Below, one piece after another: positions 20,401 to 61,405 of a stretch of DNA of 64,000 nucleotides. Both the position numbers and the translations under genes were made by a program. The stretch spans positions 40,137 through 104,136 of the forward strand of contig JAOZHS010000003.1 of the NCBI GenBank assembly GCA_026014745.1, given 5' to 3'. The stretch is from Candidatus Bathyarchaeota archaeon (lineage in GTDB: Archaea > Thermoproteota > Bathyarchaeia > Bathyarchaeales > Bathycorpusculaceae). Numbering within the stretch: the stretch's first letter is position 1; the number at the start of each line of letters is the position of its first letter. The notes beneath the pieces are model-generated. The model searched no databases. It saw only the letters and a program-made list of their open reading frames with translations, and had not been told where the DNA came from.

Positions 20401-23208
20401 ATGGTTGAAAAAACGTTCCCAGCAGAAGCCTACCAGCTTCCCTTCTTCAAACAAGAAGGCTTCATACGTAAACATTGCCCAAAATGCGGCGAATGGTTCT
20501 GGACGCAAAACGCAGAGCAGGAAACCTGCGGCGAATCAGGCAGCGACGAATGCGGCTGCTACAGCTTCCTTGGCAACCCCGCCACATCCAAAAAATTCAC
20601 TCTCAGCGAAATGCGCGAAGCGTTCCTGAGCTTCTTTGAAAAAAACGGCCACACCCGCATAAAACCCTACCCAGTTGTGGCCCGCTGGCGCAAAGACATC
20701 TACCTAACACACGCCAGCATAATCGACTTCCAGCCCTATGTCACCGAAGGCATTGCACCTCCACCAGCGAACCCCTTGGTGATTTCACAGCCATCCATTA
20801 GGCTAACGGACATATCAAACACGGGTCCAACTTTTGGCAGGCACTTAACCATTTTCGAGATGGGAGGCGCCCACGCTTTCAATTACCCTGATAAAGAAGT
20901 TTACTGGAAAGACGACACGGTACGCTTCCACCACCGCTTCGCAACCGAGTGTCTGGGCATTAAATCTGAAGAAGTCATTTACAAAGAAGGCGTCTGGGTA
21001 GGCGGCGGCAACGCTGGTCCCGATGTGGAATGCATCTGCCGCGGACTCGAAGTTGGTACCCTTGTCTTTATGCAATACAAAGTAGTCGGCGACGACTTCG
21101 TAGAGTTGCCTATCCGTACAGTCGACACAGGCTATGGCATTGACCGCTTCACATGGATTAGCCAAGGCGTCCCAAGCCTATTTCAAGCCATCTACGGTAA
21201 CCTGCTTGACAAAGTCATGAGCATGGCAGGCATAACTAACATAGATAACGACTTCTTGTTTCAAGTCGCAAAGTACTCTGGGCTGGTCAGCGTGGATAAA
21301 CGAGCTAACCGTATGGTTGCCCGTCGACGCGTCTCCGAACTAACTGGCATAGACCTCGCGACACTCGAGAAGGTCTTGGTCCCGATCGAAAACGCGTGGG
21401 CAGTCACCGACCACACCAAAACCCTTAGCTTCATGCTATCTGAAGGCGTGGTGCCCTCAAACATCCAAGAAGGCTACCTCGCAAGGCTCCTCTTCCGACG
21501 CGTCTACCGCCTCATGCGCACCCTCAACATTGAACCCGCCAAACTCTACGACATCATCGACATGCAAGCAGACTACTGGGCAAAAGACTTCCCTCACATA
21601 AAAGAAATGCAAAACGAAATCATCGAAATGCTCAAAGTCGAAGAAGAAAAATTCGTAGAAACCCTCAACCGCGGAGAAGGCATGGTTAAACGCATCGCAA
21701 CGGACCTTAAATCCAAAGGCACAGGCAAACTCTCCAACGACCTGCTTGCCGAACTCTATGACAGCCACGGATTACCCCCAGAAATCGTCAAACAAGCCGC
21801 AGAAAAAGAAGGCGTCGAAGTTGATGTCCCAGAAAACTTCTATGCACTAATAGCGAATCGTCACATGGCGGCATCTAAACCTGTTGAGGAAGAAGAGGCA
21901 AAAGCAGAGAAGACGATTGAAGAAGTCGTCGAGCAACTTCCCCAAACCGAACCTCTCTACTACACTGACGTTTATCAGCGTGAATTTAACGCTACAGTCC
22001 TCAAAATCGTCGGAGGCATCTACGTCGTGCTGGGCAGTACCTGCTTCTATCCTGAAGGCGGCGGCCAACCCAACGACCTAGGCAAACTGGTCTACGACCA
22101 CACTGCCTACGACGTTGTGGATGTTCAGAAAATCGGCAAAGTTATAGTCCATAAACTAAAAACCCCCGCAACATTCAAAGAAGGCTCCACCGTGCATGGC
22201 ATACTGGATTGGGAACGACGATACAGTCTCATGAAAGCTCACACCGTCACGCACCTAATTAACGGCGCAGCTCGACGCGTACTGGGCGAACATGTCTGGC
22301 AAAGCGGCACCCAAAAAGGGCTAGAAACCTCACGCCTCGACATATCCCACTACCGCAGATTAAGCCAAGAAGAAATCCACAAAATCGAAACCCAAGCAAA
22401 CCAAGCCATCGCCGCCAACATGAAAATCGAAACCAAATGGTACCCCCGCAACGAAGCTGAGAAACTCTACGGATTCCGACTCTATCAAGGCGGCGCCGTC
22501 CCAGGCAAAGACATCCGCGTCGTTAAAACCGGCGATTGGGATGTGGAAGCCTGCGCGGGCACTCACCTTGGCAGCACCAGCGAGGTCGGATTGGTCAAAA
22601 TCGTCTATACAGAGCGTGTTCAAGATGGCGTTGAACGATTGGGCTACGCGGTCGGCTTAAAGGCGCTCAAAGCGGTGCAGGATCAAGAAAGTCTGCTTTG
22701 GAAAGTCAGCGAAACCCTCAGCGCACCAATCGACAAGCTCGATAAAACCGCCGAAAAAATGCTCTGCGAACTCAAAGACGCCCGAAGCGAAAACAAACGC
22801 CTACTAAAAGAACTCGCAGCTAAAGAAAGCGACCTCGGCCAAGCTCAAGCAGCAGAAGCCGCAGTTGAAATCAACGGAGTAGCCCTCGTCAAGCGGGATT
22901 TCGGAGATTGCGTCGATACTAATCGCATGGTTCAGACCGCCTCAGAAGTACTCAAACGCAACCCCGCAGCTGTCACGCTGTATTATGGCTGTGATGGGAA
23001 AAGCTGTCGGCTTATGGTTATGGCTGGAGAGGCTGCTGTGCAAAAAGGCGTCCACGCAGGCAACGTCGTCAAAGAAGCAGCGCCGATTATGGGAGGCGGA
23101 GGCGGCGGAAGACCTAACTTTGCGCAGGGCGGCGGCACTCAATGCCAAAAACTCGCGGATGCAGTGGCGGCAGCGCTGGACGTTGTCAAAAAGCAGCTGA
23201 AAACTTAG
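20401..23208 (+). CDS. alaS: Alanine--tRNA ligase (archaeal type)
   Basis: 'HLTIFEMGGAHAF', 'DTGYGIDR', editing 'HTVTH...CAGTH', C-terminal 'GGGGGRPNFAQGGG'. Confidence 0.98.
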   Translation: MVEKTFPAEAYQLPFFKQEGFIRKHCPKCGEWFWTQNAEQETCGESGSDECGCYSFLGNPATSKKFTLSEMREAFLSFFEKNGHTRIKPYPVVARWRKDIYLTHASIIDFQPYVTEGIAPPPANPLVISQPSIRLTDISNTGPTFGRHLTIFEMGGAHAFNYPDKEVYWKDDTVRFHHRFATECLGIKSEEVIYKEGVWVGGGNAGPDVECICRGLEVGTLVFMQYKVVGDDFVELPIRTVDTGYGIDRFTWISQGVPSLFQAIYGNLLDKVMSMAGITNIDNDFLFQVAKYSGLVSVDKRANRMVARRRVSELTGIDLATLEKVLVPIENAWAVTDHTKTLSFMLSEGVVPSNIQEGYLARLLFRRVYRLMRTLNIEPAKLYDIIDMQADYWAKDFPHIKEMQNEIIEMLKVEEEKFVETLNRGEGMVKRIATDLKSKGTGKLSNDLLAELYDSHGLPPEIVKQAAEKEGVEVDVPENFYALIANRHMAASKPVEEEEAKAEKTIEEVVEQLPQTEPLYYTDVYQREFNATVLKIVGGIYVVLGSTCFYPEGGGQPNDLGKLVYDHTAYDVVDVQKIGKVIVHKLKTPATFKEGSTVHGILDWERRYSLMKAHTVTHLINGAARRVLGEHVWQSGTQKGLETSRLDISHYRRLSQEEIHKIETQANQAIAANMKIETKWYPRNEAEKLYGFRLYQGGAVPGKDIRVVKTGDWDVEACAGTHLGSTSEVGLVKIVYTERVQDGVERLGYAVGLKALKAVQDQESLLWKVSETLSAPIDKLDKTAEKMLCELKDARSENKRLLKELAAKESDLGQAQAAEAAVEINGVALVKRDFGDCVDTNRMVQTASEVLKRNPAAVTLYYGCDGKSCRLMVMAGEAAVQKGVHAGNVVKEAAPIMGGGGGGRPNFAQGGGTQCQKLADAVAAALDVVKKQLKT

Positions 23209-23224
23209 CTGGCTTTCTTTCTCT

Positions 23225-23337
23225 TTTTTTGGTTTCTCTCTTTGTGTGGGTGTAGCGGTTTACGGGGTGCCACAAGACTGCCAAAGGTTTAAGCCCTGTT
23301 TTGTTGCTGCATTGTTTTTCTGCGTCTGTTATGGTGT
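23225..23337 (+). repeat. Dispersed ~113-bp non-coding element, copy 1 (partner 60499-60611)
   Basis: Exact 14-mer TGCCACAAGACTGC plus two conserved blocks separated by an equal-length 26-nt variable spacer. Confidence 0.8.
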
Positions 23338-23503
23338 GGGGTGCGGCGTGTTCCTTCACATCCTGCATGGTTTCGGTTGATTTTGCGTGTGGCGGCATGC
23401 AGCGACCGCACAAAACCATACAAGAATTGCAGCTTCCTTGGGCATGCATAAGGGAAGGCTTCTTGACGAATCCAAGCTAAAGGTTCTTGACTACCCCGCC
23501 GCT

Positions 23504-24070
23504 TTACTCGTCCCTTTTTGCCTGCGTGTAGGCTTCTTGGATGACTGAAAAGTTTTTCTCCGCCAAGTCAACTCGGAAACGTTTGTGCAGCGTTTTTTCC
23601 ATGCCCTCGAGCGTGACAATGTTGGTTGCTTTGGCAACAACAGCCAACAATGCGGTGTTAGTGATGGGGACGCCGAGGATTTTTAGGGCAATTTCGGTTG
23701 CTGGAACGGTCCAGACTTTTCCTTTGTTGACTCCGAGGGCTTCTTTTAAGACCGCGGGGTCTTTATTTGAGTTGATGATTAAGCAGCCGCCATTGTGTTT
23801 TAGCCCCGCAGTCACTGGTAAATTCTTGATTAGCGTGTTATCTAAAACAATTACAACATCAGGGTAGTAAACTCCGCAATGCAGCCTTATGGGTTCGGTG
23901 CTGATGCGGGTGAAGGCAGTTACGGGTGCACCCATGCGTTCAGTTCCAAACTCGGGGAAGGATTGGATGTATTTGCCTGTTTCGAGGGCGGTACGTGCCA
24001 GCAGGTCACTTGCGGTCCAAGCTCCCTGCCCCCCTCGTCCATGCCACCTGAACTCTACCATTGTTTTCAA
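23504..24070 (-). CDS. porG: 2-oxoacid:ferredoxin oxidoreductase gamma subunit (orphan)
   Basis: 'EFRWHGRGGQGA', 'QSFPEFGTERMGAPV', 'PITNTALL'. Confidence 0.92.
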   Translation of the reverse strand: MKTMVEFRWHGRGGQGAWTASDLLARTALETGKYIQSFPEFGTERMGAPVTAFTRISTEPIRLHCGVYYPDVVIVLDNTLIKNLPVTAGLKHNGGCLIINSNKDPAVLKEALGVNKGKVWTVPATEIALKILGVPITNTALLAVVAKATNIVTLEGMEKTLHKRFRVDLAEKNFSVIQEAYTQAKRDE

Positions 24071-59594: not shown

Positions 59595-60215
59595 TTACTT
59601 CTTTTTTTTCGTGGGCTTAGGTTTTGTCATGGACGCAGCTTTTTTGAGGTCCAGCGGCGAATTTACTCTAAAAAACGTGCGCAAATCTGGGTCTATCTGC
59701 TCAATAACAAGCGTAGACACATAGCGCACTCCACGAAGCTTCTCAACAATTACTTCTACATCAACCTCGCCCTCATCAACAGCCTCCTTAGCTGCAATTA
59801 GGGCTTGCTTCACATTATACACGGCATGTAGCGCTTCAATTTCGCTGCTGGTGCGTCTTACAACAACCGCTGATTTGCCACCACACAATTCTAAAAGCAA
59901 AGAGAGAACTTCACGAGATAGAAATGGGCTGTTTTCGGGTAAGAGCAATGCATATTCTCCGCTGGCAACTTGGAGTCCAGTGACGGCGCCAACTAGGGGG
60001 CTGCCTGAATTGGACGCATCAACTGCGAATTTTACTTTAGCCGGTAGCAGCCCTGCATATGCGGTTGAGTGTTCCTCCGAAGTGGTCACCACAATGATTT
60101 CATCTACTAAGTCTTTAACTGCATCTACAACGAGTTTTATGAGGGGGTTTCCATCAACATCGCCGTTGAAACCCTTGGATGAATTGCCGGCTAAAATAAT
60201 TGCTGACTTATCCAA
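59595..60215 (-). CDS. MobA-like NTP-transferase, apparently degenerate
   Basis: 'AIILAG', 'SPLVG..TGL', 'EALHAVY', 'FFRVNSPLDL'; catalytic loop shortened. Confidence 0.8.
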   Translation of the reverse strand: MDKSAIILAGNSSKGFNGDVDGNPLIKLVVDAVKDLVDEIIVVTTSEEHSTAYAGLLPAKVKFAVDASNSGSPLVGAVTGLQVASGEYALLLPENSPFLSREVLSLLLELCGGKSAVVVRRTSSEIEALHAVYNVKQALIAAKEAVDEGEVDVEVIVEKLRGVRYVSTLVIEQIDPDLRTFFRVNSPLDLKKAASMTKPKPTKKKK

Positions 60216-60498
60216 ATCAAATCACACAAGGCACTCAATCCAATCGGAAAGTTTAAGGCTTTTGCACTAGAAACCACGAAAGCATTGCCTTAGCGTCCCC
60301 TGCAAAAGCCAAAGGGCAAACCCCTTAAACAAAGAATGCTAAACAAGCAGTTTTTCTATCTGCTCACATAACGCGCGCAATCTTGAGCAAGCCAATTTTC
60401 TGCGTGAAAAAATAAGGGTAGCCTACATGGATTCACATGCACACCGCGACGCTTCAACATAGATGCATGTTGGGCGTGTGGTGAAATTTGCTTATGCA

Positions 60499-60611
60499 AC
60501 ACCGAAACAGGCGCAAAGAAGCATTGCAAATTAGGTTTGCAACCGCTGCTGGTTGCAGTCTTGTGGCAGCCGTAGAATCGCCGCACGCACATAAAGAGAG
60601 AAACCCAAAAA
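60499..60611 (-). repeat. Dispersed ~113-bp non-coding element, copy 2
   Basis: GCAGTCTTGTGGCA at 60555-60568 is the reverse complement of 23268-23281. Confidence 0.8.
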
Positions 60612-60619
60612 GGGTGGGT

Positions 60620-61405
60620 TTAGGTGACTTCGTTGTTCTCTATTTTTCTTGCCATATCTTGAAGTATCCTGTTTAGCGGGTGGTCTGGTTTATCTTGTAC
60701 AAAGATAAAGTTGCCTTCCGCTCTCAAGATTTCACAGAAGCATGGCACAATGCCCAGTAAAGGCACCTGATAGGTTTCTTTAACTCGGTTTTGGATTTCG
60801 TTTTTCTTAGCCGCTGCCGTGGGGTCTAAGACTTTGTTTAACACTAACCCCGTCTTTTTCTCAAAGAGGTTGTAGAGTTCAGCAAGCATTCGTTTAGTGC
60901 CATTCACGTCAGAACGGTCCCCGGTTGTTGCAACCACAACAAAATCCGCAGCCACAATGGCGTTAATGGATGAATACTGGAGTCCTGGGCTTGTGTCAAA
61001 GACCAGGTAGTCAAATTTTTGTTCTTTAATCATCGTTTCTCTTAGAGCCAAGATTCGGCCCAAAGCACGCATTTCCCATTTGCGATCTTTGCTGGATATA
61101 TCACGGATAGCTTCGGTGGCTGGATTAGCAAGTGCAGCGTAAAAGTTGTTCTTTCCGCCTACTCTGTCGCTAAGGTCAACGAGGACTTTGTTAATTTCAC
61201 AGTTGTTGTTGAGATAGTCGTTAAACCAGGTTTCGGTGTTCTCAGCTTTTAGTATTGCAAAGAGGCTTGGGGCTCGAAAGTCTAAGTCAAAAACGCAGAC
61301 TTTTTTACCGCTTTTAGCAAACGTCGCGGCAAGGTTCACTGACAGTAATGTTTTGCCTGTTCCGCCTTTATACGAATGGACTGCTATAATTTTTCCCATA
61401 ATCAT
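60620..61405 (-). CDS. MinD/ParA-family ATPase
   Basis: Deviant Walker A KGGTGKT, 'DLDFRAPSL', 'FDTSPG'. Confidence 0.93.
   Translation of the reverse strand: MIMGKIIAVHSYKGGTGKTLLSVNLAATFAKSGKKVCVFDLDFRAPSLFAILKAENTETWFNDYLNNNCEINKVLVDLSDRVGGKNNFYAALANPATEAIRDISSKDRKWEMRALGRILALRETMIKEQKFDYLVFDTSPGLQYSSINAIVAADFVVVATTGDRSDVNGTKRMLAELYNLFEKKTGLVLNKVLDPTAAAKKNEIQNRVKETYQVPLLGIVPCFCEILRAEGNFIFVQDKPDHPLNRILQDMARKIENNEVT

Follow-up and report, generated by a model that had tools for sequence, protein, structure and literature searches.

The window, a 64,000-nucleotide stretch of a contig from a Bathyarchaeia metagenome-assembled genome (G000; an uncultured lineage of soil archaea, with an archaeal SSU model match of 1487 bits), carries two similar intergenic stretches. 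Copy 1 lies between alaS and a convergent gene for an oxidoreductase subunit, and copy 2 lies in the spacer between a ParA/MinD-type ATPase gene and a gene for a MobA-like NTP-transferase. Genes were called by a simple ORF heuristic, and Pfam matches confirmed the calls of alaS (AlaRS) and the ParA-like gene that a preliminary description of this DNA had made. The features of the two sites are as follows.

20401-23208, plus strand: alaS, alanyl-tRNA synthetase, 935 aa, upstream of copy 1 (Pfam tRNA-synt_2c, tRNA_SAD and DHHA1)
23226-23428, plus strand: repeat core of copy 1 (match of family model R1 at G000:C2:63362-63564, model positions 3-217, 105.6 bits)
23233-23261, plus strand: most conserved 5' blocks of copy 1, a T-rich leader and CTCTTT, then TGTGGGTGTGGCGGTTT
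23268-23281, plus strand: 14-mer TGCCACAAGACTGC common to both copies, whose CCACAAGA part is a conserved block of the family (alignment A2)
23282-23307, plus strand: 26-nt "variable spacer" of copy 1, whose best non-family match in the genome is 14 nt (28.2 bits)
23504-24070, minus strand: gene for a pyruvate/2-oxoacid:ferredoxin oxidoreductase gamma-type subunit, convergent with alaS (Pfam POR, E = 3e-39)
59595-60215, minus strand: gene for a MobA-like NTP-transferase, downstream of copy 2 (Pfam NTP_transf_3)
60216-60619, minus strand: 404-bp spacer between the ParA-like and MobA-like genes, a filled site made of copy 2 and ~180 bp of unique DNA
60400-60610, minus strand: repeat core of copy 2 (R1 match at G000:C2:100536-100746, model positions 3-214, 127.7 bits)
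60620-61405, minus strand: gene for a ParA/MinD-type ATPase, upstream of copy 2 (Pfam AAA_31, ParA and CbiA)

Both loci were read again and aligned, and every sequence detail given in the preliminary description was recovered, indicating that the similarity is real. The first block begins TTTTTGG(G)TTTCTCTCTTT, and the match over this block, described as 57 nt long, reached 84.5% identity over 58 nt in a BLAST search against the whole genome (E = 2.7e-9), a value that excludes chance similarity. The 14-mer is exact in both copies (23268-23281 on the plus strand and 60568-60555 on the minus strand), the spacer that follows is 26 nt long in both with unrelated sequences, the second block is identical at 23 of 30 positions, and the GCAACC/GGTTGC pair is found in copy 2. 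The two copies start 17 nt after the alaS stop codon and 9 nt after that of the ParA-like gene, respectively, in agreement with the reported stop-codon proximity. The extent of the element had to be revised: the family model traced the similarity further in the 3' direction, so that each copy spans ~205 nt and not ~113 bp. The equal spacer length is thereby accounted for, because the whole core is homologous.

The concern that only these two copies exist was dispelled by searches of the complete 2.7-Mb, three-contig genome. The BLAST search described above returned ~35 further loci, and an iterated nhmmer search converged on 36 copies (copy 1 matching at E = 3e-24), all 36 of which are intergenic; copies 1 and 2 are the only members within the 64-kb window. 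The family model R1 was built from 74 copies, 36 from this genome and 38 from other genomes. The unit is ~205 bp long and G+T-richer on one strand, running from a T-rich leader and CTCTTTRTGTGGGTGTGGCGGTTT to ...CCACAAGAA. Its core has a G+C content of 48.6%, compared with 46.5% for the genome, and is thus not AT-rich. Near-invariant columns are interspersed with variable stretches: among the 74 copies, which come from ten or more species, 35% of the core columns (66 columns) are at least 90% conserved and 16% are conserved at 50% or less. Columns 11-39 of alignment A2 have a mean conservation of 0.87-0.95, and copy 1 agrees with them at 26 of 28 positions. The same alignment revealed at least six motifs of the GTGTGG/CCACAC type per unit, in both orientations. 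The ends of the core (TCTTTGTGTGG and CCACAAGA) form a weak 8-nt inverted match, as judged by eye.

Around this core, additional modules were recognised. In ~25 copies of this genome a long form of ~280-290 bp was found, in which the arms of a 17-20 bp inverted repeat (TATCAGTAGATCAAA / TTTGATCTACTGATA; left ...CCCCTCCC-TTATTTATCAGTAGATCAAA, right AAACTTTTTGATCTACTGTTAAAG) flank the core. The left arm is present in ~24 of the 36 copies and both arms in ~10 of the 36. Because conservation between copies extends into the sequence on its left, this inverted repeat is not strictly terminal. The same long form occurs in one other species (L009, L028), and the inverted-repeat motif stays at background level in G039, G014 and G005, each of which has at least 37 cores; the inverted repeat thus marks some sublineages only. 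Alternative 5' and 3' modules are joined to the core in other copies. At L008:4380-4460, L013, L026, L027:5670-5750 and L034:4270-4350 as well as at G000 C1:871600-871760, the position of the inverted-repeat arm after the core is taken by a second conserved module (...AATGAACAGCRCAATGCAGTCGGGCACTAGCATGGC...), and its occurrence in several species points to a modular build. An upstream module consisting of CTCTGCC, 5-10 nt and CCCCTCCCC-TATAAAAGG/TTTAAAGG precedes the core in L006, L008/L035, L020, L030 and L031 and was also seen downstream in L038; it resembles a TATA box whose upstream part is unusually rich in C.

The genome holds at least 116 dispersed intergenic repeats in total, namely the 36 of this family and ~80 of a second, mosaic family. 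Identity of the two families was rejected: profile searches separate them, 4 of the 36 copies adjoin modules of the mosaic family, and one short motif is common, the end motif GGGGTA...GATCA / CAGTAGA resembling one in the ~80-copy family. Two copies (G000 C1:243668 and C1:248246) have ~100 nt of near-identical upstream flank that includes the 3' part of a gene, so one of them was duplicated passively within a ~4.6 kb segmental duplication. The 16S (G000 C3:688790-690278) and 23S (C1:449518-452552, minus strand) rRNA genes of this genome are unlinked and on different contigs. One family copy is located ~220 nt downstream of the 16S gene (C3:690498, plus strand) and another ~1 kb upstream of the 23S gene (C1:453752, minus strand), each in the same orientation as the rRNA gene.

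The two window copies are old, somewhat degenerate members from sublineages without the inverted repeat. Copy 1 has lost the ATGTT-GAA block through a 13-nt deletion and has no 3' T-run; copy 2 keeps the T-run; neither has flanking inverted repeats. Of the 66 columns conserved at 90% or more, copy 1 retains 91% and copy 2 retains 88%, ranking 10th and 7th worst of the 74 copies, respectively. Their mutual identity across the entire core is 56.5%, and each is 71-72.5% identical to its nearest copies in other species.

To define the distribution, relatives were scanned with the family model. Of 60 other species in the genus, 31 contained the family; copy number ranged from 0 to at least 37 (the scoring cap), and the genomes with zero copies include single-contig, 97%-complete ones. 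In a 140-genome sample of the class it was found in one sister genus only; the 127 genomes sampled from 30 other families all lacked it. When the most conserved 24-nt motif was sought in named public genomes, almost all matches were in Bathyarchaeia/Bathyarchaeota MAGs, and a single match in a bacterial MAG (33 nt) was dismissed as chance-level. No family copy was found on viral contigs. In a phylogenetic tree, the inverted-repeat copies form one clade of ~25 copies specific to this genome, with a mean pairwise identity of 76.5%, whereas the 11 copies without the inverted repeat, including both window copies, are interleaved with copies of other species. To judge from this divergence, the burst that gave rise to the ~25 inverted-repeat copies is old by now.

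Comparison of orthologous sites provided filled and empty states. MFD01299.bin.2.100 and fen_992, two close species, differ by two copies, each of which has no counterpart at the orthologous gene end of the other species, and homology ends at the stop codon, 4-25 nt before the 5' end of the element. The ParA-like site of the window behaves similarly. Orthologs of the ParA-like and MobA-like genes are adjacent in G001, G002 and G010, where an element-free spacer of 77-80 bp is conserved as a T-run followed by AAAAAGCTTAAACAAT; in this genome the extra DNA sits exactly between the conserved T-run and the conserved promoter box. The ~180 bp of 3' DNA that accompanies copy 2 there is unique, with no repeats elsewhere in the genome. 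In G005, an element copy occupies the same ParA site and looks like a different subtype from copy 2. The MobA-like promoter (60216-60260 of the window, AAAAGCCTTAAAC...) comprises an A-rich BRE and a TATA box, is conserved between species (spacers L089, L090 and L092) and fits the consensus upstream of this genome's tRNA genes. At the other site, no element was found after alaS in any of 11 same-genus relatives, which rules out a conserved alaS 3'-UTR element. The alaS and POR gamma-type genes are not adjacent in relatives, so their junction, in which copy 1 is located, is peculiar to this genome. The POR gamma-type gene (23504-24070, minus strand) has a paralog 264 kb away at G000 C2:327407-328189, with ~76% DNA identity. 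Taken together, the filled and empty sites, the patchy copy number and the tree show that the unit is gained and lost. Of the suggestions made earlier, that of a small mobile element was therefore upheld in substance, given 36 dispersed copies and a burst clade specific to one genome.

The shared position and orientation of the window copies beside alaS and the ParA-like gene had raised the idea of a 3'-UTR function. Among the 36 copies, spacers between tandem, convergent and divergent genes number 18, 7 and 11, compared with 18.5, 6.2 and 11.3 expected from spacer lengths (p = 0.94). The 5' side of the element faces a gene 3' end in 15 of 36 copies, and the split is about even in other genomes. 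A family-wide preference for gene 3' ends or for one orientation was therefore rejected, since the context equals the genome background. Copies that are very near a gene do adjoin 3' ends, which is to be expected because insertions by gene starts would hit promoters. The common placement of the two window copies is a coincidence and no mark of a 3'-UTR function.

The structured RNA that had been proposed for this position found no support in folding analyses either. RNAalifold predicted 0 pairs for the 74 sequences. With relaxed settings and 36 copies, the G/U-rich strand folded at -59.7 kcal/mol and its complement at -40.7 kcal/mol, an advantage that G-U wobble alone would give it, and helix enumeration showed that dozens of mutually exclusive wobble helices fit the alignment. 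When a five-hairpin structure was evaluated explicitly, 81.4% of cells were paired compared with 81.1% after column shuffling, and covariation was 0.136 in both; a variant with a long-range helix gave 79.8% pairing compared with 79.7% in shuffles, with covariation equal to the shuffle mean. Counts over these explicit structures showed that substitutions often break the proposed pairs. Compared with dinucleotide shuffles, the window copies show no extra folding stability (z = -0.9 and -1.2), and no fold emerged from mapping per-sequence minimum free energies and base-pair probabilities. Rfam 15 yielded no match at gathering scores on the window and none at E <= 1 on five copies.

The guide-like variant of the proposal fared no better. 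The supposedly variable spacer is not variable within the main subfamily, the burst clade, and in the window copies its complementarity to the genome (28.2 bits) equals the mean of shuffled sequences (28.1 bits). Neither TnpB nor IS110 was found. The mobilising enzymes sought were TnpB, IS4-type DDE (DDE_Tnp_1), Y1/HUH (Y1_Tnp), IS110 (DEDD_Tnp_IS110) and reverse transcriptase (RVT_1), and none of these was detected in the 97.5%-complete genome. An origin from TnpB omega-RNA, IS200/IS605, IS110 bridge RNA or a retroelement was discarded on account of these absences. No protein in the genome has more than one close paralog, so that two copies are the maximum for any protein. Away from family copies the inverted-repeat motif is essentially absent, and it brackets no kb-sized segment in this genome; a search of five relatives for an autonomous insertion sequence with the same inverted repeats gave nothing conclusive.

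Coding capacity was considered as well, since the two loci could be remnants of a pair of protein-coding paralogs or of a small-peptide gene. On its G/T-rich strand the consensus can be read as an open frame, and ORFs of 80-140 codons coincide in part with several copies. However, a stop-free frame occurs in 37 of 74 forward and 38 of 74 reverse sequences, as a composition effect would produce; 26 of 39 indels are 1 nt long; and a 3-base periodicity is absent (entropy by phase 0.90/0.82/0.84; power at 1/3 is 1.6 times the median). The ORFs that overlap the window copies, at 23186-23449 and 60356-60592 (both minus strand, 87 and 78 codons), have no Pfam match and are most likely artefacts of a stop-poor, strand-skewed composition. 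Indels, periodicity and stop-free frames thus all speak against coding, and a protein-coding origin is almost certainly wrong.

The combined evidence favours, with a probability of about 0.6, the reading that both stretches belong to a family of dispersed, non-coding intergenic repeats that is restricted to a single family-level lineage of Bathyarchaeia. Two other readings draw on the conservation of the blocks in place. Three orthologous copies in MFD01299.bin.2.100 and fen_992 are 97.6%, 92.2% and 96.7% identical, amounting to 22 differences in 484 nt (4.5%), compared with 12.9% in the flanks and 10-22% over the whole aligned regions. The block conservation and this low divergence exceed what a decaying selfish element would show and point to some function, a suggestive indication drawn from three loci; it does imply that the conserved blocks matter, either for mobilisation or for a function in place. 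One candidate is a family of ~200-nt G/U-rich small ncRNA genes that act by primary sequence, through protein binding or base-pairing, and for which dispersal is secondary; they would be transcribed from their own promoter or by read-through from the upstream gene. Such genes would agree with the strong strand asymmetry and the better fold of the G/T-rich strand, with blocks that are near-invariant across species, and with orthologous copies kept at least as well as their flanks (two of the three pairs clearly better than one adjacent flank). Furthermore, a TATA-like box (TTATTTAT, TATAAAAGG or TTTAAAGG) lies 25-35 nt upstream of the conserved start in many copies from several species, and a 3' run of at least five T's ends 25 of the 36 copies here. 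However, the box is similar to the TATA boxes upstream of tRNA genes in this genome but does not have the A-rich BRE that real promoters here possess; the T-run is found in just 10 of 38 copies in other genomes; G-U pairing alone would account for the better fold; and covariation, stability above shuffles and an Rfam match are all missing. Half of the species of the genus, complete genomes included, do without the element, and the ncRNA-gene reading is accordingly held to be unlikely.

The same conservation could also reflect a DNA-level array of protein-binding sites, in which GTGG/CCAC motifs in both orientations serve a host protein involved in chromatin, topology or regulation, much as REP/BIME elements are bound by gyrase and IHF. 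Conservation in primary-sequence blocks and not in pairing, the repeated GTGTGG/CCACAC-type motifs, the indifference to the orientation of neighbouring genes and the apparent constraint on copies in place are all in keeping with such an array. A strong strand asymmetry would be unexpected for a purely double-stranded array, though, and no candidate binding protein was identified. The patchy presence within the genus implies that no core cellular process can depend on the element, and the binding-site array is regarded as very unlikely. A reading that combines function and mobility holds the ~205-nt core to be a functional sequence-specific RNA or protein-bound DNA platform that is under purifying selection at each locus and spreads without the known transposase classes. 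It is quite unlikely; if true, the core would be a new kind of archaeal mobile non-coding element, with an undescribed host or episomal factor recognising the invariant blocks.

For the favoured reading, that of a dispersed mobile repeat, the following course of events is proposed. The unit enters and leaves intergenic DNA whole, for example between the T-run of one gene and the BRE/TATA box of the next, as the filled and empty ParA-like sites show. Copies would be left near stop codons, since insertions near gene starts would destroy promoters. Extra flanking modules are present in some lineages, one of which, with the 17-20 bp inverted repeat, expanded to ~25 copies here. Mobilisation would probably occur in trans, by an enzyme lost from this genome or not yet recognisable. 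The conserved blocks are most likely cis-acting sequences for mobilisation, possibly with a host-level role that slows decay in place. Several observations count against the mobile-repeat explanation: besides the block conservation and the low divergence of orthologous copies, the family has no common inverted repeat, a core that is not AT-rich, no autonomous partner among the enzyme families sought, and no readable target-site duplication. The last was neither visible at copies with both inverted-repeat arms nor read in the two filled-versus-empty pairs, in which the far flank is unalignable and the relatives are at least 10-25% diverged.

Among known systems, the family behaves most like ERIC-type or MITE-like elements. 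With ERIC, REP and BOX-type repeats it shares intergenic, multi-copy occurrence, a consensus conserved across relatives and the lack of a linked mobilising gene, a likeness that is descriptive and does not imply homology. ERIC in particular is likewise non-coding and intergenic, measures 100-200 bp, keeps its consensus across relatives at varying copy number and is found in part at gene 3' ends; it is not known to have a dedicated transposase. ERIC is imperfectly palindromic and its transcript folds into a single long hairpin, whereas the Bathyarchaeia core is non-palindromic, folds no better than shuffles, belongs to an archaeal host and has no sequence similarity to ERIC. Reported ERIC copy numbers are ~30 in E. 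coli K-12, 150 in Salmonella LT2 and 711 in Photorhabdus (PMC10969869).

Small size (50-500 bp), non-coding sequence without an internal transposase, multiple intergenic copies and presence that varies between relatives are features in common with MITEs, as exemplified by Sulfolobus SM1-SM4 (25-44 copies; PMC10969869), the Correia elements of Neisseria and QMITE2 of Coxiella, all of which are 50-500 bp long, non-coding and intergenic and occur in tens of copies with presence/absence between relatives. QMITE2 is mostly located in 3' UTRs of ORFs, and one subfamily here has the 17-20 bp inverted repeats around the core. Unlike prokaryotic MITEs, however, the Bathyarchaeia repeat does not have terminal inverted repeats throughout the family or a detectable target-site duplication, its genome yielded no related IS or transposase, and its core is neither AT-rich nor folded into a stable stem-loop. 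The modular build recalls the BOX elements of Streptococcus pneumoniae and the ~80-copy mosaic family, from which the repeat differs in having no tandem sub-repeats. TnpB omega-RNA and IS110 bridge RNA combine conserved scaffold blocks with short variable segments, the likeness behind the earlier guide idea. In contrast to them, the copies here are dispersed and orphaned, with no adjacent effector gene, no conserved fold and no target complementarity.

No description of dispersed repeats of this type for Bathyarchaeia was found in the literature searched, and the family appears to be previously undescribed. For the annotation of this genome, the analysis removes two false leads, an alaS/ParA 3'-UTR riboregulator and the short ORFs over the copies. 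A Bathyarchaeia lineage with more than 110 intergenic repeats and no recognisable insertion sequence thereby gains a second family of dispersed repeats. The family is a useful marker for insertion polymorphism and rearrangement in uncultured Bathyarchaeia, and the spread of copies with near-invariant blocks, without a visible transposase, poses a modest but real puzzle.
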